From NCBI GenBank assembly GCA_965223505.1, contig CBDCWP010000039.1, positions 256,001 through 320,000 on the forward strand: 64,000 bases of DNA, written 5' to 3'. This document shows positions 8,788-59,584 of this stretch, one piece after another. This DNA is from Planctomycetota bacterium (GTDB lineage: Bacteria; Planctomycetota; PLA2; JAEUHO01). The stretch's first letter is position 1. Every line of letters begins with the position of its first letter. The translations under genes were made by a program, and so were the position numbers. The notes under the pieces are model-generated. The model saw nothing but the letters and a program-made list of their open reading frames with translations. It was not told the DNA's origin and made no database searches.

Positions 8788-8802
8788 GCACAGCCGGTGC
8801 CG
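8788..8802 (-). promoter_or_regulatory. sigma54-type -24/-12 promoter candidate
   Basis: cGGCACCGGCTGTGC (GG-N10-GC) upstream of HEAT paralog 1. Confidence 0.6.
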
Positions 8803-9031: not shown

Positions 9032-10834
9032 CTACAGCAATGAGAAGAGCTCGTTGACGACGTCGGTCGAAGCGCGGTAGTTGCCGCCCGCGGTGACGAT
9101 CGCGTACGGAGACGGCTCCTCCCGGGCGCACGCGAGGCCCAGCGCAGAGATCGCGACGGCGCGCGTGAGATCCTGTTGACCGTCGTCGACGGCGAGCTCG
9201 ATCAGCTGAGACACGGCTTGATCGTCGCGCATGCGCGCGAGCGCGCGTCCGGCCTCGCCCTTCACCACGTGCGATCGGGCTTCCTCCAGCTCCTTCAGGA
9301 GGAGCGCTCTCGACGTCGCGCTCGGAAACGAGGACAACGCGCTCGCCGCCAGGACGCGCAACCACTCGTTGCGTCGCTCCTTCACGGTCGCCTCCAACGC
9401 CGACCCGATGTCGGCCGGCGGCTTCGACGCGTACGAGAGCGCGAGCGCCGCGTACCCGCGCAGCGAGTGCTCCCGCTTGGGATCACGGAGGATCGCCGCG
9501 AGCGCCGGGAGCGATGCCTCGTCGTCGGCGATCCCCAATGCGACCGCGAAGGCGTTCTGGCGGCGCGGGTCCAGCTTCTTGGTCGTCAATCCCATCCGCA
9601 GCGTCGCGATCGACGCCTTGTGTCGTTGCGCGAAGCGCGCCTGGTTGCCCGCCTCCCGGAGGAAGAGCGAAAGCGCCAGGGCGGCGTGGGGCCGGTTGAG
9701 GTAGTGCCCGTTCCGGGCGATCTCGACCAGATGATCGACCGCCTCCGCGTCGAAGGTGGCCGCCTTGGTGCGCGCAGCATGCGCTGACAGCACACCCAGG
9801 CTCATCAGCGCGAAGTTGTTCGTCGTCAGGTCCCGTGTCTTGAGGTGGCTGTCGATGAGCCCCTTCGCGATCCGGCTTCGTCCCTTGGCGGAGACGTGCC
9901 GGCTGAGCGTCCCCAGCGCCACGGCGGCGCTGCGGCGAATGGTCCGATCCCCGCGACGGCTCCCGATCCGGCGTAGCAGGGGGGTGATGTCGTCCTCCGT
10001 ACCCAGCGAACCGAGCGCCAGGGCGATGTAGCTCGCCGAGACGCTCGTGAAGGTCGAAGGGGTCGAGCGACGGCGGTGTTCCCGCATCCACGCGCGTAGT
10101 TGCTCGCGCTGCGGCTCCGTGATCGAGCTGCGGGGTTGCGACCGCAAAGCCAACAGCAGTCCGATGTAGAGGTCCGGGTAGGGATAGCCGTCGCGATCGA
10201 GTCGATCGAACAGCCGCGCCGTCGTCTTGGCCGCGTCGCCCGTGGGCTGGTCGCCCAACATGCCGATGGCGATCGCCGCGAATGCCCGTGCGCGACCCTG
10301 GAAGTCGCCGTCGTCGAAGATCCCGAACAGGAATTGGCGAACGCCGTCGAGCGTGGCCGCGTCGAGCTGGTGCGCGGGATCGTCGCGGCGCAGCAGACCC
10401 AGCGACAGGGCCGCCGCCTCGAGCACAATCACGTCGTACATCTTGTGCTTGGCTCTCTTCTCGAGGCCTTCTTTCAAGAGCTCGATGTCGGACGCATCGC
10501 GTCGAGGCATCCGAGCGAACGCGAGAAATGCCGCCGACTGCGTGTCCTGATGACCGGCCGCCTTCGCGTCCGACATCAACCGGAGGGTCGCCGCGCGCGC
10601 TCTCTCGAGCGTTTCGGCCTTCAGCGCGGGACGCGGCTCCTCGCGAACGCGCCGCTCGATGGGCTCGACGTTGTAGTGCAACCAGAACGGCCAGTCGTCG
10701 AACGTCATGCTGCGCGGGCTGTGCCCGGCGCCCGGCGGCACCATGCCGCCGGGACCGCGGAAGCGACCCCCGTGCGCGTGTGCGTCCGCCGCAAAGAGTG
10801 AGAGCGCCCATGCGACGAGCACGACGCGTCGCAT
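9032..10834 (-). CDS. secreted HEAT-repeat protein, paralog 2
   Basis: MRRVVLVAW...AHA|HGGRFRGPGG; same C-terminus NYRASTD; alternative start at 10861. Confidence 0.85.
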   Translation of the reverse strand: MRRVVLVAWALSLFAADAHAHGGRFRGPGGMVPPGAGHSPRSMTFDDWPFWLHYNVEPIERRVREEPRPALKAETLERARAATLRLMSDAKAAGHQDTQSAAFLAFARMPRRDASDIELLKEGLEKRAKHKMYDVIVLEAAALSLGLLRRDDPAHQLDAATLDGVRQFLFGIFDDGDFQGRARAFAAIAIGMLGDQPTGDAAKTTARLFDRLDRDGYPYPDLYIGLLLALRSQPRSSITEPQREQLRAWMREHRRRSTPSTFTSVSASYIALALGSLGTEDDITPLLRRIGSRRGDRTIRRSAAVALGTLSRHVSAKGRSRIAKGLIDSHLKTRDLTTNNFALMSLGVLSAHAARTKAATFDAEAVDHLVEIARNGHYLNRPHAALALSLFLREAGNQARFAQRHKASIATLRMGLTTKKLDPRRQNAFAVALGIADDEASLPALAAILRDPKREHSLRGYAALALSYASKPPADIGSALEATVKERRNEWLRVLAASALSSFPSATSRALLLKELEEARSHVVKGEAGRALARMRDDQAVSQLIELAVDDGQQDLTRAVAISALGLACAREEPSPYAIVTAGGNYRASTDVVNELFSLL

Positions 10835-10873
10835 CACCACCGCGGTCTTCGATCCCTGCATGCCCCGCACGCC

Positions 10874-10888
10874 GCACCTCGCGTGCCA
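10874..10888 (-). promoter_or_regulatory. sigma54-type -24/-12 promoter candidate
   Basis: TGGCACGCGAGGTGC (GG-N10-GC) upstream of HEAT paralog 2. Confidence 0.65.
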
Positions 10889-10914
10889 CTCTGGCCACGT
10901 GTGTCGAACGCAGG

Positions 10915-11388
10915 CGTTCTTCGTTGCGGTCTTTCGAGGGGCGAGGAAGCGTCCTCGTGATGTAGGTGCGATGCGAGCGAGGACGCGGACGCTCACCCTT
11001 CGGAGGGGGGCCTGGGGGCACGTGCGGAGTGGGCCTTGAACCTCGATGGAGACGTTCTTCGTTGCGGTCCTTCGAGTGCCGCGAGGAAGCGTCCTCGTGA
11101 TGTAGGCGCGATGCGGAGCAAGGACGCGGGCGCTCACCCTTTAGAGGGGGTCCTGGGGGCAGCGCCCCCAGAGTGGAGACGTTCTCCGCCGGGGTCTTTC
11201 GAGCGCCGCGAGGAAGCGTCCTCGTGATGTAGGCGCGATGCGGAGCAAGGACGCGGGCGCTCACCCTTGAGAGGGGGTCCTGGGGGCAGCGCCCCGAGTG
11301 GAGACGTTCTCCGCCGGGGTCTTTCGAGCGCCGCGAGGAAGCGTCCTCGTGATGTAGGCGCGATGCGGAGCAAGGACGCGGGCGCTCA
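10915..11388. repeat. tandem array of ~125-138 bp palindrome-rich units (left array)
   Basis: Units begin at about 10915, 11053, 11180 and 11305 with core GCGAGGAAGCGTCCTCGTGATGTAGG...GGACGCGG(G/A)CGCTCA and a GGGGGCAGCGCCCC hairpin. Confidence 0.95.
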
Positions 11389-11471: not shown

Positions 11472-11723
11472 ATGTCGACACTCGATGACAGAATCGAGAC
11501 CCTTACTCTGCGCCAAACAGAAGCTGAAGAGCGAGCGACGCATGAGATCTGGAAGTCGCGGGAGCTGAACAAGTCCGGTGACACTGATGCCGGGAAGTCC
11601 GCTGAGGAGCGCGCCCAAGAACTCCTTGCCGATGTGAAGCGCATTGGGGCTGAGATTGACGAAGCGCTTGATGAACGCAGCAAAGTCAAGCGACTTCTCG
11701 CCTCGTTGGGCGAGTCCCCATAG
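11472..11723 (+). CDS. small coiled-coil hypothetical protein
   Basis: Charged helical ORF (MSTLDDRIETL...). Confidence 0.45.
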   Translation: MSTLDDRIETLTLRQTEAEERATHEIWKSRELNKSGDTDAGKSAEERAQELLADVKRIGAEIDEALDERSKVKRLLASLGESP

Positions 11724-11888
11724 CGCTTCGGCTGAAGGGACCCCATGCGTGGCCCGCGTCGTTTACGGCACTGGATCATCCAACAGCTCTAGGCGCCTAG
11801 CTGCTAGCTGTGAGATTGGGACGCTTCGGACGCTTCGCATACGACGCAGTCTTGAGACGTCTGACCACCTGGCTACAGTCCGAACGTG

Positions 11889-12132
11889 GTCGCGTCAGTA
11901 GTTTCTCGAACTCGTTCGAGCTCTACCCAGTGTCTGTCTTGCAACTGCTCTTGGTGGAATGGCTGCTGGCGCGCCACACCCACTTCCCGGACTTTGGTTT
12001 CTCAGATTTGGTCTTGACGGCCCCAAGCGCCTGAATACCGTGGAGCTTGCAAGACAGACACGGCTAGCTGGGAGCTAGAGCGTTCGAGGGGGACTGGGGT
12101 TCTCTTCGCGGCGACTTGTGCGCCGGCGGCCA
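11889..12132 (+). ncRNA. candidate structured RNA/leader, copy 1
   Basis: Homologous to 51236-51472; 15-bp stem 11930-11944/12047-12061; loop-to-3' pairing 11960-11971/12121-12132. Confidence 0.6.
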
Positions 12133-12246
12133 CTTCGGCCATTCGTGAAGTCGATGCTGCAACCGCTGCACATCGACGCGGGATGGTCATTGGAAAGACA
12201 TGTTGGCGAGAGCGGCCTCGAGAGCGTTGCCGAAAGCGCAGCGACG

Positions 12247-12708
12247 ATGGAGACACTGAGCGTGTCGCCGATCGCATACCCCAGCCAGCAAGACCAGCTT
12301 CGGCATGGGCACTCCAACTCCTTCGGCCGTCCGCCTCTGACGTTGCTCAAGAACTTTCCCTATGCCGCGGACCTCGTTCAGCCTTTTCGCACGAAGTGGG
12401 TCCCTGTTGACTCCGAGTTTCAGTTCGCGACAGTGCACGTCCATTGCCAGACGCTCTTTCCCGCAACGTTGCCTTCGCCGGGCGTAACGATCGGCGTGTT
12501 CACTTCATTCGATACCGTCGAGTTCACTTCATTCGATACCGTCGAGTTCTATCTGATCGGAACGTCAGTCAACGTGACGGGGACGGGCTCTCAAAGTGTC
12601 CCCGTAACGACAGATCTTGGCCCAATGGTGCGCGTGGAGATCGCGAATGGTGCAACTGTGCCCGTCTTCGCCACGCTCAGTGTTTGGCTGCAACCCAAGA
12701 GTACCTAG
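12247..12708 (+). CDS. small beta-rich protein, family A paralog 1 (with in-frame 8-aa duplication)
   Basis: LKNF..SEFQFATVHVHCQT..SFDTVE..VRVEI..SVWLQPK shared with the next three ORFs; start uncertain. Confidence 0.7.
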   Translation: METLSVSPIAYPSQQDQLRHGHSNSFGRPPLTLLKNFPYAADLVQPFRTKWVPVDSEFQFATVHVHCQTLFPATLPSPGVTIGVFTSFDTVEFTSFDTVEFYLIGTSVNVTGTGSQSVPVTTDLGPMVRVEIANGATVPVFATLSVWLQPKST

Positions 12709-12730
12709 TCGAAGAGCAAGGGAGATGAGT

Positions 12731-13087
12731 ATGGGACCGCTAGTATTGGCAAAGAACTTTCCCGCCGTCGTGGATGAGAATCAGACATTCGTCAGTGATT
12801 GGCTCCCCATGGACAGCGAGTTCCAGAACGGAACCATCCACGTCCATTGCCAGACGATCTCGCCGAACTCGGGCGTTACGACGGGATTCGAAGTCCAGGT
12901 CGAGACGTCCTACGACACAGTCGAGTCGAACCAGATCGGGACGACGATCAATGTGATCGCAACAGGCAGCTCCAACTCTGCGATCAGCGCCAACATCGCC
13001 GCGATGGTGCGCCTGAAGATCGAGAACTCCGAGACCTTCCCGATGTTCGGCATCCTGAGCGTGTGGCTCCAGCCCAAGAGCGAATAG
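12731..13087 (+). CDS. small beta-rich protein, family A paralog 2
   Basis: GGAG RBS; MGPLVLAKNF...SVWLQPKSE. Confidence 0.85.
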   Translation: MGPLVLAKNFPAVVDENQTFVSDWLPMDSEFQNGTIHVHCQTISPNSGVTTGFEVQVETSYDTVESNQIGTTINVIATGSSNSAISANIAAMVRLKIENSETFPMFGILSVWLQPKSE

Positions 13088-13107
13088 TTCGCCGGAGGGC
13101 TCGGTAG

Positions 13108-13467
13108 ATGGCGCCGATCGTTTTAGCCAAGAACTTCTCATTCGTTGCAGCCTCCGGGCAGACGCTGCTTGGCGACTGGATCTTCATTGGGGATCTGAGT
13201 GAGTTTCAGAACGCGAACGTTCACGTGCACAGCCAGACGCTATCGCCGTCAGGCGGAGTCTCGGGTCTTGCGGTGGATGTGCGCAGCTCATTCGATCGAG
13301 TCGAGAGCTATCAAGTTGGAGGGAGCGTCTCTGTGACTCTCCCTGGCAGTTACGACCAGACCATCTCCGCCAATCTCGCTGATTACGTGCGACTGGCCCT
13401 TACGAACAACACGGGTGGATTGCTCATCGGGATCGTCAGCGTGTGGCTGCAGATGAAGGCAGAGTAA
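13108..13467 (+). CDS. small beta-rich protein, family A paralog 3
   Basis: MAPIVLAKNF...SVWLQMKAE. Confidence 0.85.
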   Translation: MAPIVLAKNFSFVAASGQTLLGDWIFIGDLSEFQNANVHVHSQTLSPSGGVSGLAVDVRSSFDRVESYQVGGSVSVTLPGSYDQTISANLADYVRLALTNNTGGLLIGIVSVWLQMKAE

Positions 13468-13492
13468 GGTTTGAGAGAGAAGGGCTTGGAAG

Positions 13493-13846
13493 ATGGGACC
13501 GCTGGTTCTGGCGAGCAACTTCCTGATGGCAGCTGGTTCAGGCCAGGTGTTTATCGGAGATTGGCTGCCGATCAACAGCCAGTATCAGCTCGCCACGATC
13601 CACGTTCACTGTCAGACGATCACGCCGTTCCCGCCCGTCACGGGCTACGAGGTGATGGTGGATAGTTCATTCGACACCGTCGAGAGCAATCAGATCGGAA
13701 CCACGATCGTCGTGTCGACGACGGGGAGCCTGAGTTCCCCGGTGACAACCAACCTTGGACCGTTTGTGCGCTTGCGAATCGAGAACCCTGAGTCGGTGGC
13801 GATGCTGGCGATCATGAGTGTCTGGTTGCAGTTGAAGAAGACGTAA
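13493..13846 (+). CDS. small beta-rich protein, family A paralog 4
   Basis: MGPLVLASNF...SVWLQLKKT. Confidence 0.85.
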   Translation: MGPLVLASNFLMAAGSGQVFIGDWLPINSQYQLATIHVHCQTITPFPPVTGYEVMVDSSFDTVESNQIGTTIVVSTTGSLSSPVTTNLGPFVRLRIENPESVAMLAIMSVWLQLKKT

Positions 13847-14142: not shown

Positions 14143-15540
14143 GAGGGTGTACCGTTCTTTCTGTAAATGGCTCCCCGGAGGAGAGGCGCTCGCTTCGCTT
14201 GAATCAGCTAGCTGATTCAAGCGAAGCGGGCGCGCCGCCATCTCCCGGGGCGAACTGAGTGGCGGATCAACGCCGTACCTTTGCAGGTAACGACACCACG
14301 CAAAGGAGGAACGACGTGACCCACCACGAACAGCGTACGCCTTGGGGCGACGCACTGGAAGCGCTCAGCGAGAACGGGTTCGACGGCATGGCTGAGGCGA
14401 TGCGGGTGCTGGTGAACGAGGCCATGAAGGTCGAACGCAGTGCCTTCCTCGGCGCCGAGCCCCACGAACGCACGGATCAGCGCCGCGGCTACGCCAACGG
14501 CTTCAAGCGCAAGCGCGTCAGAACCCGCTTGGGCGAGATCGACGTCCAGGTGCCCCAGGTTCGCGACGTCGAGGGCGGCGACACGTTCTACCCCTCCAGC
14601 CTCGAACGCGGCCAGCGAAGCGAGAGAGCGCTCACGCTGGCCCTGGCGGAGATGTACGTCCAGGGCGTCTCGACGCGGCGTGTCGAGGCGATCACGAAGG
14701 TGCTTTGCAACGGCCTGGAGATCAGCTCCACGAGCGTGTCTCGAGCAGCTGCGCTGCTCGACGAGGAGCTCGAGCGCTGGCGCACACGTCCGCTCGGCGC
14801 GTTCAAGTACCTCGTACTCGACGCTCGCTACGAGAAGGTGCGCCACGGCGGATCGGTGCGCGACTGCGCTGTGCTGATCGCCATCGGCGTCGATTCTCAC
14901 GGCAAGCGCAGCGTGCTGGGAACGAGCGTGAGCCTCTCGGAGGCCGAGGTCCATTGGCGCGAGTTCCTCGCTTCTCTCCAGGATCGCGGCCTTCACGGCG
15001 TCGAGCTCATCACCAGCGACGGCCACAAGGGCATTGCGGCCGCGCTGGCGGCGCGGTTCGCCGGCGTGGCCTGGCAGCGCTGCCAGTTCCACCTGCAGCA
15101 GAACGCGCAGAGCTACGTTCCGCGCCAGAAGCTTCGACGCGACGTTGCCGCTGACCTTCGCGCCGCGTTCAATGCGACGTCGCGTCGCGAGGCCGAAGAG
15201 AAGCTCAAGGCCTTCGTGAAGAAGTGGGACAAGCCCGCGCCCGACCTGGCGCGCTGGGCCGAAGAGAACATTCCGCAGGGCTTCACCGTGTTCGATCTCG
15301 GCCTGAACGAAGCGCAGCGCAAGCGCCTTCGCACCACCAACAGCCTCGAGAACCTGAATCAGCAGATCCGCCGCCGCACTCGCGTCGCCGGATTGTTTCC
15401 GAACGAAGCGTCCTTGCTGCGGCTCGCAAGCGCGGTGCTCATCGAGATCAGCGAGGAATGGGAAACCGGACGGAGGTACTTGCCGAGGGACGACGCTTGA
15501 TCAACCGCTCAGCGATTTACAGAAAGAACGTTGCTCTGCC
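14143..15540 (+). mobile_element. IS256-family insertion sequence
   Basis: IR cores CGTTCTTTCTGTAAAT (14153-14168) / ATTTACAGAAAGAACG (15515-15530); 9-bp TSD CGGGAGGTG at 14134-14142 and 15541-15549. Confidence 0.92.
14316..15500 (+). CDS. IS256-family transposase
   Basis: YVQGVSTRRV, LDARYEKVR, SDGHKG, WQRCQFH, RTTNSLENLN motifs; GGAGG RBS. Confidence 0.95.
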   Translation: MTHHEQRTPWGDALEALSENGFDGMAEAMRVLVNEAMKVERSAFLGAEPHERTDQRRGYANGFKRKRVRTRLGEIDVQVPQVRDVEGGDTFYPSSLERGQRSERALTLALAEMYVQGVSTRRVEAITKVLCNGLEISSTSVSRAAALLDEELERWRTRPLGAFKYLVLDARYEKVRHGGSVRDCAVLIAIGVDSHGKRSVLGTSVSLSEAEVHWREFLASLQDRGLHGVELITSDGHKGIAAALAARFAGVAWQRCQFHLQQNAQSYVPRQKLRRDVAADLRAAFNATSRREAEEKLKAFVKKWDKPAPDLARWAEENIPQGFTVFDLGLNEAQRKRLRTTNSLENLNQQIRRRTRVAGLFPNEASLLRLASAVLIEISEEWETGRRYLPRDDA

Positions 15541-49576: not shown

Positions 49577-49652
49577 GGCCAGATAGCTCAGCTGGTAGAG
49601 CACCTGACTGAAAATCAGGGGGTCGGCGATTCGAGTTCGCCTCTGGCCACCA
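49577..49652 (+). tRNA. tRNA-Phe (GAA)
   Basis: 76-nt cloverleaf GGCCAGA...TCTGGCC-ACCA; anticodon loop CTGAAAA. Confidence 0.97.
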
Positions 49653-49751
49653 TTTACTAGCCGTTTGCGGATGATTCGGCCTTCTAGCCGAACCCACTGC
49701 CCTCACATTTGCCCTCACAATCGGCGTTTCCTGTGTACGATCCGGGCCGTC

Positions 49752-50780
49752 GTGGCAACCGTGAAGATCCGTCGCCGAGGCAAGCGCGGGGTGTTTCACC
49801 TCGAATGGAGGTACGGCGGACGCGGAAGTCGATGGGGATCAAAGTCCCTAAAGACGACCGATCCGACGATTGCGGAGCAGCTCAAGCAGGACTTCATCGA
49901 GAGCCTGCCTCCGAGCATGACGGGGATGAAGCCGGCCGAGGCCCTTGACGGGTTCCTGGACCATCTGACGTTCCTCAAGCGCCGGCCCAGGACCATCGAG
50001 TTCTACGAGGGCCTCCTCCGCCCTCTGTTCGACCGCTGGGGCACGACGCCGCTTCAGAAGTGGACCAGGGCACGCCTGGGGGCCTACGTGCGCCGGCGCA
50101 CGAACTGGTCGGCTCGGACGACGCAGATGTTCCTGAACGCCTGCAGGTACTTCTATCGGTGGTGTGAGGACGAGGGGATCCGCTGCGCGGACTTCGTCGG
50201 GCGCCTCAAGGGGCCGCCTGTTCGTCGGGCAGAGCGACAGACGCTCACCGCCGAGCAGATCCAAGACCTCCTGGAGCACTGCCACGGGCACTACCTCGAG
50301 TTGCCGATCGCGCTGGCGGCCTACGCGGGCCTGTCCAGAGCAGACATTCGTTCGCTCAAATGGTCGCACGTCGATCTCAAGGCCGGCCGAATCGCGAAGC
50401 CGCGCTCGAAGACGCGGACCAAGATCCGCACGCCGATCATTCCTCAGTTGCTGAAGATCCTGAGCCGGCGACGGGCGCTGTCCGGTCCGGTCTGCAGGGA
50501 CCTCCCTGCATCCGACTCGTCGCTGCTCAAGGCGCTGCATCGGCAGCTCGCGGCCTCCGGCATTCCGCCGGCACCACGCGGGCACAATGGCTGGCACCGG
50601 TTCCGGCACTCCGTGGCGACAATTCTCGGGCAGCTCCGCGTTCCTATTCCTGTGATAGGGCTGATTCTGAGCCACACACCGGGGAGCACAGTCACGCTCG
50701 AGTATGTCCATGCCGACGAGGGCCAGGTCCGCGACGCGATGGAGGCGTACTCGAACGAACTTCGGCGCGTCGCAACCTGA
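49752..50780 (+). CDS. tyrosine recombinase/integrase
   Basis: HRFRH, LSH, TLEYVH box II; box I reads GLSRAD; GTG start inferred. Confidence 0.9.
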   Translation: MATVKIRRRGKRGVFHLEWRYGGRGSRWGSKSLKTTDPTIAEQLKQDFIESLPPSMTGMKPAEALDGFLDHLTFLKRRPRTIEFYEGLLRPLFDRWGTTPLQKWTRARLGAYVRRRTNWSARTTQMFLNACRYFYRWCEDEGIRCADFVGRLKGPPVRRAERQTLTAEQIQDLLEHCHGHYLELPIALAAYAGLSRADIRSLKWSHVDLKAGRIAKPRSKTRTKIRTPIIPQLLKILSRRRALSGPVCRDLPASDSSLLKALHRQLAASGIPPAPRGHNGWHRFRHSVATILGQLRVPIPVIGLILSHTPGSTVTLEYVHADEGQVRDAMEAYSNELRRVAT

Positions 50781-51235
50781 CGATTGAGCGGCAGCTTTCG
50801 ACGACCGTCTTTCCCGCCGCCGTTCGTGGGCAGCCACGCCCCTGCTGAGTCCGGCGTGTGCTTTCGCAAGGCCACCGAATTTCCGGGTCCGTACCTATTC
50901 GTCCTCTCCTGATCGGTCAGATGGGATGTCACTTACTAGGGACCGCTCTGTTGTCGTTGCTCGAACGGCCGACTTGCGCTTGGTGCGTCAGCCGAAGAAC
51001 GCCCGGGGAACAGTTGTGCCCCCCGGGCGAGTGCGGGAAACCACCTGTCGAACGTTCGTTCTGGGGGATGTCCGAGGTAGTACCAGCGGCCACCTCTCAT
51101 CATAGGAGCGCGCGCGAGTACCACTACCGAGTCGAAGGCCACACATTGCGGATCGCATTCGTCCGGAAGTTCGACACCGCTCATGCGCTGATCGGTATTG
51201 CTTCGGTCGTCGTCGCTCATCGATACACTCGACTC

Positions 51236-51472
51236 GTCGCGCCAGTGGTCTCTCGAACTCGTTCGAGCTTCCCAGGTGTTTGTGTTGCAACTTCTCTTGG
51301 AGAAACGGCCGCTGGCGCGGCACTTGCTTAGGACTTCCATTCCGAATTCGCTGTTGACGAACCTACTGGACTGGCTAGGTTCGTAGTTGCAACACAAACA
51401 CCGCTTGTGGGGAGCAGAGACGTTCGAGGGGGACCAGGCTTCTCTTCGCGGCGCTTCTTCCGCCAGCGGCCA
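51236..51472 (+). ncRNA. candidate structured RNA/leader, copy 2
   Basis: Homologous to 11889-12132; 18-bp stem 51275-51292/51385-51402; 11-bp pairing 51307-51317/51461-51471. Confidence 0.6.
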
Positions 51473-51550
51473 AAAAGGGCACTCCTTGTGTCCATTAGAT
51501 GAACGACGCCGCGAATTCGCGCATCGGGTGCGTTGGAGGAGAACGACGCC

Positions 51551-51883
51551 ATGCTTGTTGGAACCACGATGTACAAGATGGACGGGACGCCGTACTACAG
51601 TCCCGAGTTCCCCCGGGGAGGTCTTGCGGCGACGTTTGCCGTTGACGTGACCCAGATCGCCGGCACTCCGTCGGTTGTAATCACTGTCGCGCATCGAAAC
51701 GCCGAAGACACGTCGTTCACAGACGCGGGTGCGTTCTCAGCGATCACTGCCGCGGGCGACTACCAAAAGGACCTAACTGGTCTCAAGGAGATCGTTCGCT
51801 TCCGATACGACTTTGATGCCAGCGACAACGCGTCGGACGGGATGCACTTCCTTATGCAGGCGCCCAGCTGGCGTCCGTACTAG
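51551..51883 (+). CDS. small beta-rich protein, family B paralog 1
   Basis: GGAGGAG RBS; YYSPEFPRGGLAATF...GLKEIVR...QAPSWRPY. Confidence 0.85.
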   Translation: MLVGTTMYKMDGTPYYSPEFPRGGLAATFAVDVTQIAGTPSVVITVAHRNAEDTSFTDAGAFSAITAAGDYQKDLTGLKEIVRFRYDFDASDNASDGMHFLMQAPSWRPY

Positions 51884-51908
51884 CAGCTTCCAAGAAGGGA
51901 GATGACCC

Positions 51909-52244
51909 ATGATTGTGGGCACCACGATTCAGCGCCTTGACGGCAATACGTACTACAGCCCTGAGTTTCCGAGGGGAGGACTGGCGGCGACGTTTGTCGT
52001 TGACGTGACGCAGTTGGTCCTGTCGAGCGGGTCGCTCAGCGTGATCGTTGAGCATCGCAATGAGGAGGATACGACTTGGTCGACGGCGGGCACCTTCACT
52101 GCCATCACGGCGGTGGGCGCAGCAAGTCTCGACGTGACGGGCCTGAAGGAGGTTGTTCGCCTAGCTTTCGGCTTCGTCACGACAACGACCACGACCGATG
52201 CTGCGCACTTGTTGGTCCAGGCTCCGAGTTGGAGGCCGTACTAG
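51909..52244 (+). CDS. small beta-rich protein, family B paralog 2
   Basis: Same motifs as 51551-51883. Confidence 0.85.
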   Translation: MIVGTTIQRLDGNTYYSPEFPRGGLAATFVVDVTQLVLSSGSLSVIVEHRNEEDTTWSTAGTFTAITAVGAASLDVTGLKEVVRLAFGFVTTTTTTDAAHLLVQAPSWRPY

Positions 52245-52269
52245 CCCAGGCGCGCTAGAGGAGGACCTA

Positions 52270-53546
52270 ATGGCGTGTTGCGCCCAATGCGATGGCGGGC
52301 TCCAGGCTCACGAACACCAGGCGGCTGCTCTTCGATGGGGCGTGTCGTTCGCCGACGCAGGGCCCTCTGCTGACCCGTTCTTCAGGGCGGCGTCAGTCGG
52401 GGACCTTGTAGCGAAGGCAGTGCCGCGAGGGGGCAACTCCTGGCCCCGCCGGGATGTTCATAGCGGGCTGATGACCTACTACTTGGACTACTCCGACGGC
52501 GGGTCGGGAACCACCTCTCCGAATTCGGCCCGTCTTGACGAGTTGGGTGAGTTCGCCTGTATGCACGAGAAGAAGATGACGATGAGCTTCCTTGGTTGGA
52601 CCAAGGGGACGACGAAGAAGAGCCTTGGGACTTGAAGGACGAGGACAAGCCCGAGGAAGTTGCACAGTGCTGTTGCAAGGTGCAGTACGCCCACATACGG
52701 GTCATGAAGAACGAGGAAGAGAGGGGCTAGTTCCGCCTGTATGCACGAGAAGAAGATGACGATGAGCTTCCTTGGTTGGACCAAGGGGACGACGAAGAAG
52801 AGCCTTGGGACTTGAAGGACGAGGACAAGCCCGAGGAAGTTGCACAGTGCTGTTGCAAGGTGCAGTACGCCCACATACGGGTCATGAAGAACGAGGAAGA
52901 GAGGGGCTACGCTCGATCGAGATTCAGGGTAAAAGTGAGGATGTCGTACAAGCCAGGCGACGAGAACCCGGACAAGTGCTCTCTCGTCTGGGAGGAGCGT
53001 ACTTCGAGGACGTACCACGTCCCGCCTCGTACCACTGATGGTGCCATCACGGCGACTCCTCCGGAGGACGAGATTGAGGTGCCCCAGGGGCCGACGCAGC
53101 CGGGCGCAATCGAGCCCGACCTTACTCCTGAGTGGGTCGATGTGAGCAAGCAGGCGCGCAAGACACCCGGATGGAAGAACCCTGGCGCTGGCGTTGCAGA
53201 CGAGCCCAGCTGGAATGATCGACTGCCGACGAGCGGCTGCCCCGAGCGCGTCATTTGGCGGAAACTTGACGAGCCGGGCGCGCCAAAGAAGGGGTGGCCG
53301 CGAACGCTTCAGGTGAAGATCACGATCAAGAATGGGGCAAGCTGCGCCGCGTCGACGGTCCTGAAGTTCCGGCAGCACATTAACGGTCAGGGCCGGGTCA
53401 CGACTGACCCATCGCATACGAGTGGAAATTGGCGAAACCCAGGCGTCATTTCTGTCGAGCCGGGCACCGAACAGCCCGACCCCGAGGGCTGGCTGGAGCC
53501 AAAGGCGGGGGACAAGGATGCGAAACCGAAGGATGACGGGAAGTAG
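52270..53546 (+). pseudogene. ~365-aa Cys-rich protein disrupted by a 179-bp tandem duplication
   Basis: GAGGAGG RBS, MACCAQC start; deleting 52550-52728 restores a 1098-nt ORF. Confidence 0.75.
52550..52908. repeat. tandem duplication, 179 + 180 bp
   Basis: 52550-52728 vs 52729-52908 identical except one missing C in the first copy. Confidence 0.95.
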
Positions 53547-53605
53547 CGAGGATTCCCTTGTTGGGTCAGTGCTACCGGGCGACGATTCGGCAGGGAGGCG
53601 TGCGT

Positions 53606-54199
53606 ATGCACCGATGCGGGATACTAGTGAGCCTCAGTTTCCTCCTGTCCAGCACCGTAGCTGGTTGCGGAGACTCGGGGGACGGGGGGGGGGCGCGCGC
53701 ATCGGTGCATCCCGCGGGCATGGGCCTCATCTTCGACGGGATTGTCGACCTCGAGAAGACGGCTGAGCCCTACCGTTGCGAGCTTTCTCTTGGCGTCTAC
53801 GAGGATGCCAATGACCGGCCTTTACGCATCGCATTCTACAGCGACTCCGGAACACAGGTGGCCGCTTGGGACGTGACCTGGTACGACGCTTTCGTAATTC
53901 GCGACAGCGTCTTGTATCGGGCGACCCTGCAGTTCCCGTGGGGTCCTGCGCGGAGTGGCAATGTCCTGGCGGCCCTCGATCTACGTCGGAATGGCGCAGA
54001 GTTGTGGAGTACGCGAATTCCGGTCCCAGCAGGGGCGTTAGCGGAGGGTCGGGTCCGTGGGGCAACGGTCCGGTTCGAGTTTGACTCCGCCGGCGGCCTG
54101 TTGCTTGTTGTCCAGGGAGATGATGGACCGGCGGTTCCGTACGCTGTCGAGCGCACGACTGGGGCGCTGAGCGAGCCGTCCCTCCTAAGTGACTCCTAG
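53606..54199 (+). CDS. lipoprotein, candidate immunity protein
   Basis: GGAGG RBS; lipobox VAG-C. Confidence 0.7.
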   Translation: MHRCGILVSLSFLLSSTVAGCGDSGDGGGARASVHPAGMGLIFDGIVDLEKTAEPYRCELSLGVYEDANDRPLRIAFYSDSGTQVAAWDVTWYDAFVIRDSVLYRATLQFPWGPARSGNVLAALDLRRNGAELWSTRIPVPAGALAEGRVRGATVRFEFDSAGGLLLVVQGDDGPAVPYAVERTTGALSEPSLLSDS

Positions 54200-54233
54200 G
54201 TAGGCAGCACGTGCTCCGGAGGAGCCTGACCTC

Positions 54234-54503
54234 CTAGGCGACGTCGCTATGAGCATTCGCCCTCTCGGGAGGAACGCTGCTGTCTCGAACTCTGACGGTC
54301 ACCTGTGTGCCCGGAGCCGTTCCGATCGGAACCGTCGCGTTTGCGGCGCTGCCTGACTGGTGTGGGGTTACGGAGGCGCCAGGAGGGTTGACCGGGGGCG
54401 GAGGAACCTCGAAGTCATATGGGGGATTCCCACCCGATACGGTGACCTCGAAACCCTGCAAAGGGTCGAAGGGATCCGGGTCAACTGTGACGACCAACGG
54501 CAT
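54234..54503 (-). CDS. small Ig-like beta protein
   Basis: GAGGAGG RBS; VSGGNPPYDF...VTVRVRDS motif typical of Ig-like repeats. Confidence 0.6.
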   Translation of the reverse strand: MPLVVTVDPDPFDPLQGFEVTVSGGNPPYDFEVPPPPVNPPGASVTPHQSGSAANATVPIGTAPGTQVTVRVRDSSVPPERANAHSDVA

Positions 54504-54555
54504 TCGCACCTCCTCTTCAAGGTGCTATATCACGCCGTTCTTGCCTCCCAAGTTT

Positions 54556-55034
54556 CTACTGTCGCTCAATGGTCGAGATGAGCGCTTCGGCTCGCTTTCG
54601 TGCGTCCCCTGATGAGCCGTCGCGGATCGCCTTGATGGAACGTAGGTGCATCGGGTCGGCGAGGTCCTCCAAGATCGTGAGTATCTCGTCCACGCGACTC
54701 CCGCTCTTCGACTCCATGTCCCAATGCACTAGATTGGCGACCAGGGCGGCGCGGCGAGCTCCATTGGTCTGACGAACCGCCTTGATCAACGTTGGCCGAC
54801 ACGAGACCCAATCACCCTCGCGAACCACTCGAGCGGCAAGTCCTGCTGCGTTGTCATTCGCGCCTGTGAGAGCGGCTTCCCACCTTTCGCGTGCTTGCGA
54901 GTCATCACCGCTTCGCATCATCAGCCGGGCGTAGATCATCTGCTGCCAGGCATCCCCTGCGTCTTCCTCCAGTCGGCTCGACGCGAAGACAATCGCATCC
55001 TTGCCAGGTTGGATCATCCCCGAGAGATAGCGCT
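54556..55034 (-). pseudogene. 5'-truncated helical protein cut by the transposon end
   Basis: ORF remnant abuts the TGT end at 55035. Confidence 0.5.
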
Positions 55035-55042
55035 TGTGTCCC

Positions 55043-56149
55043 CTACGCGTTAGGCCGCGTCCGCCAAGCGGAAACTAGTGTTGATAAGCGCCCTCTCCGG
55101 AACTGTAGATAGCCGTGCTTGCAGAGCGTTCTCTGCGTCGCGCTGCGGTCGATTGACGCGCGCTCGATGCACGTCGGCATTCTAGCGTTTCTTTCCTTGA
55201 ATGTCTTGAGCGCGGCATCGGTCTCGAACTTCAGATCGTGCTCAAATGCCGTTCTCTCTTGCCTCGTGATCGGCCGGCGGTCTTCAAGAGCCTCCGCCGG
55301 CGTCGGCCCAGTCGCACCCCATGGCCTCGCCGTCGTATTCGCAACGAGCAAGGCGTCGTCGAGGTTTTGAGGTAGCCAGATGCGGGGATGTCCTTCCATC
55401 TGCGCGATGTGCTGTACACGTCGCTTGAAGTTCCCGCCGCTGCGCTCGCACGCGCCGTTGTAGGCGGGCGTGTACGGCGGCGACGTGAGTGGCGTGATGC
55501 CGTGCTCCTCGAGCAACGCGGCCGTCTGTTCCGAGCGAAACGCGCCCGCGTTGTCCTTCTTCAGAATCAGCGGCGCTCCGAACAGCGTGATCAAAGCGAG
55601 CAGCGCCGCGCACACAGTCTTCGTCTTCTCGCCCCGGCAGGCTACGGCCGCCAGCTGCGCTCCGCTTCCGAGATCGCGAACCAGGAACAGTCGATCCTTG
55701 CCCTGCCAGAGGCCAGCCTTGGGCCTGGTGAAGTCCGCCGCCCACACCGCCCCGGAACGAACCCACTCTAGCCGCTTGCGATACCAGCGCCATCGACGCA
55801 GCGCCACCCGTAGCAGGCGCCTCTTCATCTCTGAAAGCACGCGATACGGTACGTCGCTGAACATGCCCCGAAGTACGGCCACACCCGAGAACGGCCCCAG
55901 CTTGAACATCGCATGCAGCACCTTCTGCCGCTTCGCTCGTGGTACGTCATCGGCCTTGCGGCCACGCTTCTCGTACACCGGCTTGCCCTGGCGAACGCGA
56001 AGCTCCCAACGCCTGATCGTTCGCTCGGCCACGCCAAGGACTCGCGCCAGGTAGGCGCGTGTTTCCTTGTCCCAGCCACTTCGCCGCATCACCTCCACGG
56101 CCTGAAGCCGGAACTTCACCTGCTCCTCGTACGACATCTTCTCGCTCAT
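55043..56149 (-). CDS. HTH + rve-type DDE transposase 2
   Basis: WAADFT, KDNAGAF, SPPYTPAYNGACER. Confidence 0.85.
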   Translation of the reverse strand: MSEKMSYEEQVKFRLQAVEVMRRSGWDKETRAYLARVLGVAERTIRRWELRVRQGKPVYEKRGRKADDVPRAKRQKVLHAMFKLGPFSGVAVLRGMFSDVPYRVLSEMKRRLLRVALRRWRWYRKRLEWVRSGAVWAADFTRPKAGLWQGKDRLFLVRDLGSGAQLAAVACRGEKTKTVCAALLALITLFGAPLILKKDNAGAFRSEQTAALLEEHGITPLTSPPYTPAYNGACERSGGNFKRRVQHIAQMEGHPRIWLPQNLDDALLVANTTARPWGATGPTPAEALEDRRPITRQERTAFEHDLKFETDAALKTFKERNARMPTCIERASIDRSATQRTLCKHGYLQFRRGRLSTLVSAWRTRPNA

Positions 56150-56541
56150 CGCTGCCTCCAACCTTCCTGGTGCGCCACATGCAGCGCGTGCCGAACCCGC
56201 GGCGCCTCGCCAAGCCCGCAATCGAAGATGTCCACCTGCGTGCGCACCACGCGCACTCGGTGCCGTAGCTTCGACACCTCGCGCTCAAGCTCATGATCGT
56301 CGTCAGGCAGCACGGCGCGCGGCCGGCCACAAGCGCCGCCTTCAAGCGCCTCAACGCCGGCCTGCAAGAACCTACGTCGAAGATCCTGGAAGCGCGTTCG
56401 GCCGATGCCCAAACGCTCGCACGCATCGCCAACGCTCCACTGCCGGCCAAGCGTGAGCAGAATCACCTTCACGCGCTCACGCGCCGTCTCGCTCGCCGAC
56501 GTGCGCGCCACCAGCGTCGGCATCTCGCTTCGCCGTCCCAT
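56146..56541 (-). CDS. small HTH protein
   Basis: SVGDACERLGIGRTRF HTH plus coiled coil; translationally coupled to the downstream gene. Confidence 0.8.
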   Translation of the reverse strand: MGRRSEMPTLVARTSASETARERVKVILLTLGRQWSVGDACERLGIGRTRFQDLRRRFLQAGVEALEGGACGRPRAVLPDDDHELEREVSKLRHRVRVVRTQVDIFDCGLGEAPRVRHALHVAHQEGWRQR

Positions 56542-56983
56542 CGCCGTTTCCTTTCTCTTCAAGGCCCGTGCGCAGCGTCTTCAGCACCGTCTTGCCGCGG
56601 TGGCCGCGCTTGGCGCTGCGGCCCTTCTTCGAGGATGCCTGCTTGCGCCCGCCGCGCGCCAGCCCCAGGCTTCGATTGGCCGCACGAAGCAGGGACTGGT
56701 GCCGCCGAAGCTCCTTCTCCAGGTGCTGTTTCTCGGCCTTCAGCGCCAATATCTCGCGCTGCGGCGTCTTCTGGATGCCGCGCTTCTTCGGCTCCATCGC
56801 CCGCAGCATGCCCTTCAAAGCACGGCCTTCGAGCTGGTAGTAGCGCGAGAGCGACACGCCCATCTGCTCAGCCGCCTCGCTCGTGCCGATCTCGCCTGAG
56901 AGCGCTTCCAATATCACTGCCACGTGCTTGCGCGACGTCTTGCTCGCCGTGATCGTCGTCACGTTCTTCTTCTTCGTAGGCAT
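56477..56983 (-). CDS. small HTH/coiled-coil protein
   Basis: TSEAAEQMGVSLSRYYQLE HTH. Confidence 0.8.
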   Translation of the reverse strand: MPTKKKNVTTITASKTSRKHVAVILEALSGEIGTSEAAEQMGVSLSRYYQLEGRALKGMLRAMEPKKRGIQKTPQREILALKAEKQHLEKELRRHQSLLRAANRSLGLARGGRKQASSKKGRSAKRGHRGKTVLKTLRTGLEEKGNGDGTAKRDADAGGAHVGERDGA

Positions 56984-58344
56984 TACTCCTGCTCCTTCGT
57001 GGGCGCCTCGTCAAGGGCCTTGAGCTCCTCGAGCACGTCGTCGAGCACGCTCTCGCCCGGCCCCTCCTTGGCCGCATCCTTGCGCTTGCCCGATGCCCGC
57101 AAGTCGACCTCTTCGCGAACGCCGTCCTTGTCCGTCAACAGCACCTTGTCGCCCTCGGCGTGAAGCGACACCGGCTCGTCGCCGATTCGACCCGCCAGGT
57201 ACAAGGGCTTGCGCGGCTCACCGTGAAGCGCCAACTCCTTGGCGTTCGTTGCAACCGCCTCCTGCAGGGCGCTGCGCACGCTCTGCGAGGCTTCGAAGAA
57301 TCGGTCCGCTGGAACCAGGCCGCCAATGCCCTGGTGGGTGCGCTGGAAGTTGTAGAAGCCGATGAAGTGGGCAATGCGCGTCTTGGCGTCCTCCATGCCG
57401 CGGAAGATCGCTCCGTCGATCAGCTCGCGAAACAGCGTGCCCCAGAAACGCTCGATCTTGCCAAGCGTCTGCGGCCGCCTCGGCCTGGCCACGATCTGCT
57501 TGATGCCGCGCTTCTCGCAAAGCTTGCGAAACGAGCTCTTCCCGCGCCAGGTCTGATACTGCGCGCCGTTGTCGGTCAAAATCTCCTCGGGCGCGCCGAA
57601 GTTCGCGATCGCCTGCTCGAACGTCTCCCGAACCATCGCACCCGACGCCGATGCGTGAAGCCCGAAGCCCACGATGAAACGCGAGAAGTCGTCCAGGTAG
57701 CAAACCAGGTGCACGCGCCGACGCTCGCGCTTCAGGAGAAACGTGAATAGATCCGTTTGCCAAAGCTCGTTCGGTCGCTTGCGCTCGAATCGCTTCACCT
57801 TGGGCGGGTTGCGCGCCGGCGCAACCGCCTCCACCTCGTAGCCCGCTTCCTTCAGCACGCGCTGAACCGCGCCGCCTGAAACCGAGATACCCTCCGTTCG
57901 GATCAGCATGTCGTGGATCCGATCCTGGCCCCAGTCCGGATGCGCGTCCTTCATCATCAGGATCGCACGGCGCGCCGGCTCGGGCAGCCCGCTGCCCTTC
58001 ATGCCGCGCTTGTGCCCGAGCAAACCGGCGGGGCCCTCCTCCTCGAACTTGCGACGCCACGCGTACAGCGACGCCGTGCTCACGCCGATCAGCGGCGCGA
58101 ACTCCGTGGCCGCAAGCTCGCTGCGAAACCAACAGTCAAGCGCCAACAGGCGCTGCTCGCCCGTGAACTCCGCGCTACGCGATGCGTCGCTTCGCACCGT
58201 TCGAGCACGACGGCTGCGTGTGCCGCGGGGCACGTAGCCGCTCACGGCCCGCTTCCTCCGCTCGGCTCCGGCGACTTCGTCGCCTCCGCCTCCCTTCGGA
58301 AGCGGGCCGTCCAACCTCTCGGGCGCCTTCGTATCGTCGTTCAT
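56983..58344 (-). CDS. IS481-like rve DDE transposase 1
   Basis: PNELWQTD, LTDNGAQY, PQTLGKIERF, YNFQRTHQG. Confidence 0.92.
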   Translation of the reverse strand: MNDDTKAPERLDGPLPKGGGGDEVAGAERRKRAVSGYVPRGTRSRRARTVRSDASRSAEFTGEQRLLALDCWFRSELAATEFAPLIGVSTASLYAWRRKFEEEGPAGLLGHKRGMKGSGLPEPARRAILMMKDAHPDWGQDRIHDMLIRTEGISVSGGAVQRVLKEAGYEVEAVAPARNPPKVKRFERKRPNELWQTDLFTFLLKRERRRVHLVCYLDDFSRFIVGFGLHASASGAMVRETFEQAIANFGAPEEILTDNGAQYQTWRGKSSFRKLCEKRGIKQIVARPRRPQTLGKIERFWGTLFRELIDGAIFRGMEDAKTRIAHFIGFYNFQRTHQGIGGLVPADRFFEASQSVRSALQEAVATNAKELALHGEPRKPLYLAGRIGDEPVSLHAEGDKVLLTDKDGVREEVDLRASGKRKDAAKEGPGESVLDDVLEELKALDEAPTKEQE

Positions 58345-58443
58345 CTCTCTTCCTTTCCCTGGCACATAGGCCAGCCAAAGGAGAGAGCCTTATCAACACC
58401 GGTTTCCTGCCCTTCGCAGGTCACCTATTCGTCGAGGGAGACA

Positions 58444-58713
58444 GCTGCGAATGTTGCCGTCGGTAGCACGGACGTATCCCAAACGGCCTTTGTTCAAGAA
58501 GGCGACTGGGATGCGCTTGATCAGCTCCTGGCCGCCCACGACATCCCGCGGGACGACGTAGCTGACCTCAAGAAGGCGGTTGAAGCGGAGCCCGATTCGA
58601 ATGCCCTTGGTCCGCGGGTGGGTGGATGGCTCGCAAAGATGGCGAACAAGGCCTCCGAAACAGCTGTCGCGGCGGTCACGAAGGGCGTGCTCGGGTACTA
58701 CGGCATCGGCTAG
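58444..58713 (+). pseudogene. C-terminal remnant resembling the tail of AbiTii-domain proteins
   Basis: GDWDAL...LKKAVEAE...GPRVGGWL...LGYYG pattern recalled from that family; truncated at the transposon end. Confidence 0.45.
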
Positions 58714-58809
58714 GTCGGGAGTGGGTAGAACGCGCAAATCAGCGGCCCGCCTTTGGGTGTGGTAGGGTCGAAGCCCTAGCGCCGTGGCGACTTGGAGTGA
58801 GCCCCGGGC

Positions 58810-58962
58810 ATGGCCGAGGACAAAGACAAGAAGAAACGCCCCCCTGGACGCCCTGAGGAGCCTCTGAAGGCCCCGGCGGACGATTGGGAGGACAACCTCG
58901 ACCGCATCCTCAAGGCGGGAGCGCCTAGAGAGCGGAAGCCCAAGAAGGGCCAGGGGAAGTAG
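58810..58962 (+). CDS. small basic hypothetical peptide
   Basis: 50-aa ORF MAEDKDKKKRPPGRPEEPLK. Confidence 0.35.
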   Translation: MAEDKDKKKRPPGRPEEPLKAPADDWEDNLDRILKAGAPRERKPKKGQGK

Positions 58963-58978
58963 CCCCGGAGGCTCATAC

Positions 58979-59206
58979 GTGCCCCAAAGGCGGGATGTTC
59001 CATACAGGCCCCCGGTGAATCCCGGCGGCAAGTTCTGCAAGGCTGGGGTCTGTATCGCAGTCGTGGGGCTCGTCGCGATGGTGCTGGTGCGGATCTATGG
59101 CCCCAGGGACATCCGGGACCTAGCCTGGACGTTTGCAGCAGCGGCGACGGTCTTTCTTCTCGGGGGCTTCATGTACGCCTTTGGAATTTTGATCCGGGGG
59201 CGATAG
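58979..59206 (+). CDS. small two-TM protein
   Basis: Two hydrophobic helices. Confidence 0.4.
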   Translation: MPQRRDVPYRPPVNPGGKFCKAGVCIAVVGLVAMVLVRIYGPRDIRDLAWTFAAAATVFLLGGFMYAFGILIRGR

Positions 59207-59584
59207 CAGCAAGATTTGCGCGTTCTACCTACCCCCGGGCTAGGTAGCGCGGCCTCGGAACTTCGATTTGCCCTCACCGAATGTGAGGGCACGCGCCGCA
59301 GAGCCCCATTCGTTCAAATGCGTTTCGGCGCGAAGATCGCCATCAGATGGGCGACCGAGCCCTATTCCTTGCGGGATGTAGCCCGAACCGCAAGTGCGTC
59401 TGAAAATCAGGGGGTCGGCGATTCGAGTTCGCCTCTGGCCACCACTCTTTTCTTCGTCCTCGAGCGAGATCCAAAGGGCGAGGAACCCCGAGCTCTTCAT
59501 TCCCGGCCCGTGCCTCGTTCGGTCTTCCGTCTCCCGGGCTCCCCGCGTTCGTCTCGTCCCGTGCGCTCCCGCGGCGCGCGACCT

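Follow-up and report, generated by a model that had tools for sequence, protein, structure and literature searches.

The systems described so far that come closest to the element reported here are C4 of P1, CI of P4 and IsrK of Gifsy-1. In the account of P1 cited here, C4 is a small folded RNA that lies upstream of its target, and on the same strand, in the c4-icd-ant operon, and blocks the downstream genes by base pairing (PMC8198154); a table elsewhere lists it as RF01695 (PMC2864571). As outlined in the relevant passages of one source, CI, the immunity RNA of satellite phage P4, derives from an untranslated leader and has two complementary sequences to pair with, seqA on its upstream side and seqC on its downstream side, whilst the single IsrK locus of the Gifsy-1 prophage yields a short RNA and a longer read-through messenger RNA (mRNA), the short form pairing with the long one and altering downstream translation (PMC4825925). 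Here we describe an RNA element found twice in a 64,000-nucleotide (nt) stretch of DNA from Planctomycetota bacterium (GTDB lineage Bacteria; Planctomycetota; PLA2; JAEUHO01; assembly GCA_965223505.1, contig CBDCWP010000039.1, positions 256,001 to 320,000 of the forward strand), hereafter the window, in whose own numbering positions are given.

As the initial annotation of this DNA had proposed, the element occurs at 11889..12132 (copy 1) and 51236-51472 (copy 2). The copies are 73% identical over 244 nt (BLAST, query positions 10-253), the mean column identity with flanks included is 81% over 303 columns, and the blocks TCTCGAACTCGTTCGAGCT, CGTTCGAGGGGGAC and TCTCTTCGCGGCG are common to both. 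The element is a genuine RNA module that covaries in a strand-specific manner and represents a new family. Rather than the one hairpin element of ~240 nt that had been suggested, it is probably a two-part module, composed of a folded 5′ domain and a cognate leader, each bearing one of two complementary arms. The parts are located as follows (all on the plus strand).

11852..11879, +: copy 1, promoter-like site P1 (TTGAGA, 16 nt, TACAGT), which ends 11 nt before the closing helix
11890..11975, +: copy 1, 5′ domain, candidate small RNA of ~85-95 nt
11891-11903 with 11961-11973, +: copy 1, closing helix
11905-11910 (CTCGAA) with 11915-11920 (TTCGAG), +: copy 1, hairpin
11930-11944, +: copy 1, 5′ arm, within the third hairpin
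12014..12041, +: copy 1, promoter-like site P2 (TTGACG 12014-12019, 16 nt, TACCGT 12036-12041)
12047..12131, +: copy 1, leader, with the 3′ arm at 12047-12061
12082-12094, +: copy 1, C-box, GTTCGAGGGGGAC
12100-12108, +: copy 1, pyrimidine block, TTCTCTTCG
12121-12131, +: copy 1, GC hairpin and CGCCGGCGGCC
51224..51229, +: copy 2, upstream −10-like box (TACACT), with no good −35 at 16-18 nt
51236..51321, +: copy 2, 5′ domain
51236-51250 with 51307-51321, +: copy 2, closing helix
51252-51257 (CTCGAA) with 51262-51267 (TTCGAG), +: copy 2, hairpin
51275-51292, +: copy 2, 5′ arm
51354..51381, +: copy 2, promoter-like site P2 (TTGACG 51354-51359, 16 nt, TAGGTT 51376-51381)
51385..51471, +: copy 2, leader, with the 3′ arm at 51385-51402
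51422-51434, +: copy 2, C-box
51440-51448, +: copy 2, pyrimidine block
51461-51471, +: copy 2, CGCCAGCGGCC
51535-51543, +: copy 2, Shine-Dalgarno sequence, GGAGGAGAA

Further copies were located with two covariance models. The model of the 5′ domain, built on the 5′ half, finds four copies in this genome and eight strong and one weak in a second genome (G061), which probably belongs to the same family and to another genus; the model of the leader finds five in this genome and six in G061, together with one weak match there (contig C77, E 0.0026).

When folded on its own, the 5′ domain adopts the same Y shape in all seven copies tested (z-scores of −3.0 to −5.8), including copy 1 (−2.97) and copy 2 (−3.58, with none of 200 shuffles folding as well). 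The Y is made of a closing helix of 13-16 base pairs (bp), a CUCGAAC hairpin of 4-6 bp and a third hairpin, the stem and loop of which bear the 5′ arm. The closing helix, overlooked in the initial annotation, is the best-conserved helix of the element; it joins the extreme 5′ end (GCGYCAGYRGYY) to GGCYGCTGGCGC (the GGCYGCUGGCGC segment), 97% of its cells are paired across 12 copies, and at five of its pairs the sole variation is between C-G (or G-C) and a G-U wobble. In a MAFFT alignment of nine copies 87.5% of the 5′-domain cells pair, a level that none of 500 shuffles reach. A model-fitted alignment of 12 copies, which is biased towards the structure, gives 89.8% (0/500 shuffles; slid controls 31-53%), and nine of the pairs change on both sides (2/500 shuffles). 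We rejected the 5′ domain as a coding sequence, since the window copies are read in different frames through the conserved block and so share no open reading frame (ORF).

In every full copy a purine-rich C-box (GTTCGAGGGGGAC or GGTTGAGAGGGAA) comes after the 3′ arm in the leader and is followed by a pyrimidine block (TTCTCTTCG or CTTCTTCTT) and then by a short GC hairpin. C-box and pyrimidine block together form a hairpin in which 88-94% of cells are paired over 11 rows, with compensatory pairs; one of its pairs is G-U in all 11 rows, and another is A-U in four, G-C in four and G-U in two. The G-U pairs of the closing helix and of the leader hairpin would be C-A mismatches on the minus strand, which argues for selection on a plus-strand transcript and bears out the earlier proposal of a plus-strand RNA with compensatory changes.

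The two halves are linked by their arms. Those of copy 1 (GTGTCTGTCTTGCAA/TTGCAAGACAGACAC, 11930-11944 / 12047-12061) and of copy 2 (GGTGTTTGTGTTGCAACT/AGTTGCAACACAAACACC, 51275-51292 / 51385-51402), noted before as the main stem, are joined entirely by Watson-Crick pairs. Among the ten full copies there are eight different arm sequences, which pair over 13-18 bp with at most one G-U pair and no mismatch. The run of pairs exceeds the longest found in 300 shuffles in nine of the ten; in the remaining copy, on contig C30, the observed run is 15 and one shuffle or more reached 16. Pairing is specific to the cognate partner, with runs of 13-18 for cognate versus 6-12 for non-cognate combinations, and co-folding yields a net energy gain for cognate pairs or for copies with identical arms, plus five weaker off-diagonal cells of 72.

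A second site of pairing, between the CUCGAAC region (including the 3′ end of the closing helix) and the C-box, is present in all nine copies compared, with compensatory pairs (CGAAC/GUUCG, CGAAU/GUUCGG, CGACCC/GGGUUG, CGGA/UCUG and CGACUAGCG/GCGCCUAGUUCG); no more than 12 of 200 shuffles are as good in eight copies, and 67 of 200 in the ninth. This pairing is in competition with three others, namely the leader hairpin, the local hairpin of CUCGAAC and a portion of the closing helix; the C-box can accept either the pyrimidine block or the CUCGAAC segment, which resemble each other. Both of the alternatives envisaged for CTCGAAC, local pairing and pairing with the distal GTTCGAG, are thus found. 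The pseudoknot proposed between a loop and the 3′ end holds only in part: this third site (GGCYGCTGGCG with CGCCRGCGGCC) is significant in the three full copies of this genome, its energy being reached by none of 300 shuffles in each window copy and by 1/300 in the third, whereas none of the six full copies of G061 retains it (46-285 of 300 shuffles reach its energy there). The same GGCYGCTGGCG segment serves both the closing helix and the proposed pseudoknot.

Sites resembling promoters precede both halves. In each of the 12 copies the conserved GCGYCAG core is preceded, at a distance of 12-18 nt, by a single TAnnnT (as TACAGT, TACACT, TAGAGT, TAAACT, TAGACT or TATTCT). In a consensus scan P1 of copy 1 is listed with 9/12 matches (0.2 expected from shuffles), whilst no full promoter is reported at the upstream site of copy 2, so that copy 1 alone has a P1 match. 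The stretch between the arms, 80-145 nt in length and taken in the initial annotation for a hairpin loop, is unconserved apart from P2, which consists of TTGACG (invariant, 10/10), a spacer of 16-17 nt with variable sequence, and TAnnnT (10/10). No complement of UUGACG is conserved within the element; a promoter hence accounts for the invariance of TTGACG better than RNA pairing does. The 3′ arm begins 3-8 nt past the TAnnnT of P2, which would place it at the predicted start of the mRNA.

A GGAGGA Shine-Dalgarno sequence and a start codon follow the pyrimidine block at a distance of 84-194 nt. The pyrimidine block with its 3′ extension is complementary to the Shine-Dalgarno region, with no more than 26 of 300 shuffles as good in seven of nine copies (12/300 in copy 2), and the extensions covary with their partners (UAGCGGCG/CGCCGCUA and UUGGCGC/GCGCCGAA).

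The other copies show how the module is assembled. BLAST against this genome revealed a further full copy on contig C26 with wholly different arms (CCGAGCAGGTTTAGCGA / TCGCTAAACCTGCTCGG), and one on contig C30 (GTACCAGTTGTTGCA / TGCAGCAACTGGTAC, with one U-G pair) which is interrupted between the 3′ arm and the C-box by an IS256-type insertion flanked by an 8-bp target duplication, AGAACGTT. The inserted sequence (C30 ~203327-201950) is identical to an IS256/Mutator-type transposase copy of the window (14259-15500, Pfam E 5e-101), directly behind the four family-A genes described below, and more copies and fragments of it lie on contig C31. Contig C31 of this genome also holds a leader half without a 5′ domain, fused to an apparent tRNA 3′-end fragment, in which ARAGORN recognises no tRNA. 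In G061, contig C60 carries at 527-626 (+) a degenerate, divergent 5′ domain, back to back with a full copy, in which the two strands of the closing helix have both changed in sequence (GGGCCCGCGGC / GCCGCGGCGCCC) and which has no internal promoter, 3′ arm or leader; a search across G061 for targets of its arm returned only chance-level matches. The orphan 5′ domain and the orphan leader indicate that the two parts are separable units. Four G061 copies have one common 5′ domain and different downstream genes, implying that the module moves as a cassette.

Searches beyond the two genomes gave little. BLASTN against 60 relatives returned nothing apart from one 44-nt match (E 1.5e-4), the 5′-domain model gave three weak matches (E 0.002-0.005) in coding-like sequence among 58 other relatives, and a 12-sequence model found none in 150 further Planctomycetota genomes, with 25 candidates per genome scored. 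An exact-pattern scan of metagenomes and viral contigs listed 108 stretches; the 81 that were read (80 loci and one viral) contain no arm pair of at least 12 nt, and in none of them do the longest arm candidates coincide with TTGAC, so we attribute the 81 to chance. So far, then, the element appears convincing in two related genomes and in none of ~210 other Planctomycetota genomes. Nor does it follow the downstream gene families A and B (described below) to which it had been tied: 19 family-B loci were taken from metagenome-assembled genomes of Planctomycetota (133 relatives of family B) and all were searched by BLAST, and of the 17 from other genomes with readable upstream DNA, 16 are without the element, the only one with it being a locus of G061 (L041).

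The earlier verdict of an unknown family stands. Against Rfam 15, the whole window at the gathering score gives tRNA only; 11700-12300 at E values up to 10 gives just a nematode snoRNA (E 6.9), outside the element; and five copy-bearing loci at E up to 1 give just RT-5 (E 0.82), within an integrase gene. That the module is absent from print rests on Rfam and on a literature search for planctomycete structured RNAs, including the Rhodopirellula-1 motif (Weinberg 2010; not in Rfam), of which the one alignment row compared is A+U-rich and has none of the conserved blocks of this element.

We interpret the element as a two-part plus-strand RNA control module which acts by same-strand antisense pairing ahead of small-protein operons on mobile islands, a reading to which we give roughly even credence. 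Part 1, transcribed from its own −10 box, would be a compact Y-shaped RNA of ~85-95 nt that displays a copy-specific arm of 13-18 nt, and the mRNA of part 2, transcribed from P2, would begin at the 3′ arm, to which the 5′ arm is exactly complementary. Within a leader on its own, the C-box GUUCGAGGGGGA would hold the pyrimidine block UUCUCUUCG. Part 1, whether as a small RNA acting in trans or in cis within a read-through transcript, would then dock on the leader via the arms, allowing the CUCGAAC segment to invade the C-box and the pyrimidine block to be freed; the latter would pair with the Shine-Dalgarno region and shut off translation, and the long, perfect arm duplex might be cut by RNase III. 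As each copy has its own arms, each module would, under this proposal, control only its own operon. A run of T5-T9 is present no more than 25 nt past the closing helix in seven of ten copies, directly adjoining it in the contig C26 copy, and might belong to an intrinsic terminator.

Several observations weigh against this interpretation. The transcripts, both of their starts, the small RNA with its 3′ end and the sense in which the module regulates are inferred from sequence; a search for RNA runs covering 50900-53600 listed none. In most copies the −35 of P1 is poor, and P2 was missed by the consensus scan because its −10 hexamer matches at just three of six positions. Copies 1 and 2 lack a clear U-run after the closing helix, a terminator scan past that helix found none in either, and the T-run abuts P2 in several copies, where it could be an UP element. 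The Shine-Dalgarno complementarity is at chance level in two of nine copies, both before secreted-protein genes, and the accessibility of the Shine-Dalgarno sequence predicted with versus without the 5′ domain (co-folding, partition function) falls in two cases, rises in one and is about unchanged in five. Leaders and 5′ domains are always adjacent in a 1:1 ratio, so action in trans is not required. The arms are nearly pure Watson-Crick helices, as a constraint at the DNA level would also give, and the whole element folds with z-scores of −2.6 and −3.9 on the plus strand and −3.3 and −4.6 on the minus strand in the two window copies; since both strands fold better than shuffles, energy alone does not give the strand. 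As only two genomes carry the element, its copies are related to one another and less independent than the shuffle statistics imply.

A single long cis leader, akin to a riboswitch or thermosensor and running from the upstream promoter to the start codon, would account for part of the evidence. The arms and CUCGAAC/GUUCGAG would then form one nested fold, alternating with the closed 5′ domain upon binding of a ligand or protein or a change in temperature, and TTGACG-N16-TAnnnT would be an RNA or protein-binding motif and no promoter. Full-length minimum-free-energy folds do pair the arms in nine of nine copies, with the outer CUCGAAC/C-box helix nested around them in eight; the two conformations partly exclude each other; the parts are strictly adjacent; and there are conserved unpaired blocks (CUCUUGG.GAA, for example). 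We nonetheless consider such a leader doubtful. TTGACG, the fixed spacing over variable sequence and TAnnnT have no conserved pairing partner, and the otherwise unconserved 80-145 nt between the arms suit a promoter, not a ligand pocket; the T-run after the closing helix (7/10 copies) is also against it, and sensors do not usually contain perfect helices of 13-18 bp whose sequence is private to each copy. No riboswitch model matched in the Rfam scans of the window and the copy-bearing loci.

An element acting at the DNA level, either an inverton or a mobile-island site of recombination or replication with a fold in single-stranded DNA, is very improbable in our judgement. The promoter faces the genes in ten of ten copies, only copy 2 has a recombinase nearby, and arms that differ while their flanks are conserved are the opposite of what recombinase sites show, even though inverted repeats of 13-18 bp do enclose a promoter-like site of ~100 bp, the arms are almost without G-U pairs, both strands fold equally well, and the setting is that of a mobile island (copy 2 has an integrase and att repeats, and the copy on contig C116 of G061 lies 5.2 kb from an integrase homologue). 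In contigs of four DNA runs covering 49400-56500 no joint with a strand change was found at the arms, which is weak evidence, as contigs drop rare variants. Three other helices, rich in G-U pairs (C-A on the other strand) and with changes from C-G to U-G, point to a plus-strand RNA, although single-stranded plus-strand DNA would, with low probability, give the same pattern. Alternatively, the 5′ domain could be the terminator or 3′ untranslated region of the upstream gene, followed by an ordinary promoter and leader, with the complementarity a functionless relic of duplication. The closing helix with its U-run resembles a terminator, and genes on the plus strand do end 22-32 nt upstream of two G061 copies and ~450 nt upstream of copy 2 (the integrase). 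Upstream genes, however, differ or are absent between copies and yet the −10 box is kept in 12/12, and a relic can explain neither eight different, perfectly complementary arm pairs nor the compensatory changes at the second site; we regard this explanation as very improbable.

The genes and islands associated with the two window copies are as follows.

12249..13846, +: four tandem family-A genes of ~117-120 amino acids (aa), the first ending at 12708, its start uncertain
12725-13087, 13108-13467 and 13493-13846, +: family-A genes 2-4
49577..59444, +: integrative island of copy 2, 9.8 kb, in tRNA-Phe
49577-49652, +: tRNA-Phe
49608-49652 and 59400-59444: 45-bp direct repeats (3′ part of the tRNA)
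49665-50780, +: tyrosine integrase
51551-51883 and 51909-52244, +: two tandem family-B genes, 110-111 aa

The G+C content is 57-63% around both copies, with 59-63% for 51001-56000, compared with 64-74% elsewhere. Two rve-type transposase/integrase genes (55043-56221 and 56983-58365, −) lie inside the tRNA-Phe island, whose original size was thus probably nearer 6 kb. A recombinase adjoins only one of the ten full copies (copy 2), and the C116 copy has its integrase homologue further off, at the distance given above; the ORF that ends just upstream of two G061 copies has a C-terminus that is HNH-like, by eye only. The low-G+C island bearing copy 1 is flanked by three paralogous HEAT-repeat proteins of ~700 aa, 36-52% identical (6652-8886, 9032-11137 and 18194-20311, −), and contains a gene for a RuvC-like Holliday junction resolvase (16865-17407, −; PHROG 159, E 1e-21; below the NCBIfam RuvC cut-off). 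Behind the family-B genes, an ORF region has a tandem duplication of ~180 nt (window 52549-52729), and contigs of all four DNA runs join 52549 to 52729, that is, they hold one copy only. One contig of run X2 joins 51269 (the first GTTCGAG) to 51421 (the C-box), skipping 151 nt; it could derive from a different copy or represent a variant with a deletion.

Four kinds of gene lie downstream of the copies, namely family A (~117 aa), family B (~111 aa), a third family of 119 aa, and a secreted 111-aa protein followed by one of 550-700 aa. The first family-A gene of the window (12334-12708) has an odd N-terminus, without the MGP start of its paralogues, and an internal 8-residue tandem repeat (FTSFDTVE FTSFDTVE); this gene may be in decay. 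Neither family is matched in Pfam, PHROG or NCBIfam. Families A and B are both predicted beta-sandwiches, with a predicted local distance difference test (pLDDT) score of 93 for family B (a jelly-roll) and 81 for family A, and several uncharacterised phage proteins are common to their best BFVD matches. The best matches of family B among solved structures are generic jelly-rolls (PirA, Z 10.4; the BPP-1 cement protein, Z 9.9; Ena2A, Z 9.8), and a Foldseek search against the PDB found nothing for it below E 0.001; a language-model atlas places it beside mostly viral clusters, one with PF21190 (Bbp16) on 11% of its members. We treat these structural and atlas likenesses as leads only. In being small jelly-roll proteins encoded as tandem arrays of paralogues, they are reminiscent of the subunits of Ena pili, found among the fold matches. 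On profile comparison (probability 2%, E 0.021), homology between the two families was rejected. Family A falls within a wider unnamed family of 53 cluster representatives (E up to 0.001), with the pattern LLKNFTF...WDT...GP.VRL...S.YL.PKSE.

To our knowledge, the regulatory RNAs of Planctomycetota are almost unknown. The module has no match among the 4227 Rfam families, covaries strand-specifically in four separate helices and has eight or more versions that do not pair with one another; if the two-part reading is true, it would represent a natural set of orthogonal RNA regulator/target pairs and would add to the examples of same-strand antisense control on mobile elements. It also offers a way into two families of small, predicted jelly-roll proteins, of unknown role, on tRNA-integrated islands. 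A more speculative extension, which we think unlikely, is that the modules form an RNA-only, orthogonal lock-and-key system of immunity or incompatibility of small integrative islands, perhaps phage satellites with capsid-cement-like jelly-roll proteins. Each island lineage would have a private key, the 5′ arm of the small RNA, and a lock, the 5′ end of its own mRNA, such that a resident island would silence an incoming copy of the same type and spare other types. The principle of P1/P7 and of P4 would then have been invented independently in Planctomycetota, with at least eight specificities.

Comparison with the known systems shows which parts of the module have counterparts. Core sites of integron attC elements read RYYYAAC and GTTRRRY; an attC identity was rejected, as CTCGAAC departs from this consensus at its first base and GTTCGAG at its fourth, and the element precedes operons and does not follow each cassette. 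An inverton would similarly have a promoter-like site (of ~100 bp here) between inverted repeats of 13-18 bp, but the module has one orientation in 10/10 copies, eight arm sequences in ten copies with no common repeat, and additional strand-asymmetric RNA helices, and most copies are without an adjacent invertase. With IsrK the module appears to have a common logic, though not sequence or fold; IsrK activates translation, whereas repression is the presumed direction here, and the IsrK forms use one promoter, whereas two promoter-like sites are conserved here.

The likeness to P4 CI lies in the segment GGCYGCUGGCG, which pairs both upstream and downstream in the three full copies of this genome, and in the location of the module on small integrative islands. 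The upstream partner is present in 12/12 copies and the downstream partner is significant in 3/9, all in this genome; there is no sequence similarity to CI, and P4 relies on premature transcription termination, whereas the competing hairpin and the Shine-Dalgarno complementarity point to translation here. C4 differs in that RF01695 gives no match (copy 1 at E up to 10, five further loci up to 1), in that the module combines a Y-shaped fold with a separate promoter-like site between regulator and target, and in its occurrence in Proteobacteria, not Planctomycetota. It is nevertheless similar in arrangement, with the regulator upstream of, on the same strand as, and complementary to the downstream mRNA (through the arms in 10/10 copies and the C-box in 9/9), a likeness of logic only and without evidence of homology. 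P1 and P7 are heteroimmune because the RNA loops differ between them and the target sites differ to match, and the copy-private arms of the module seem to follow the same logic of matched change.

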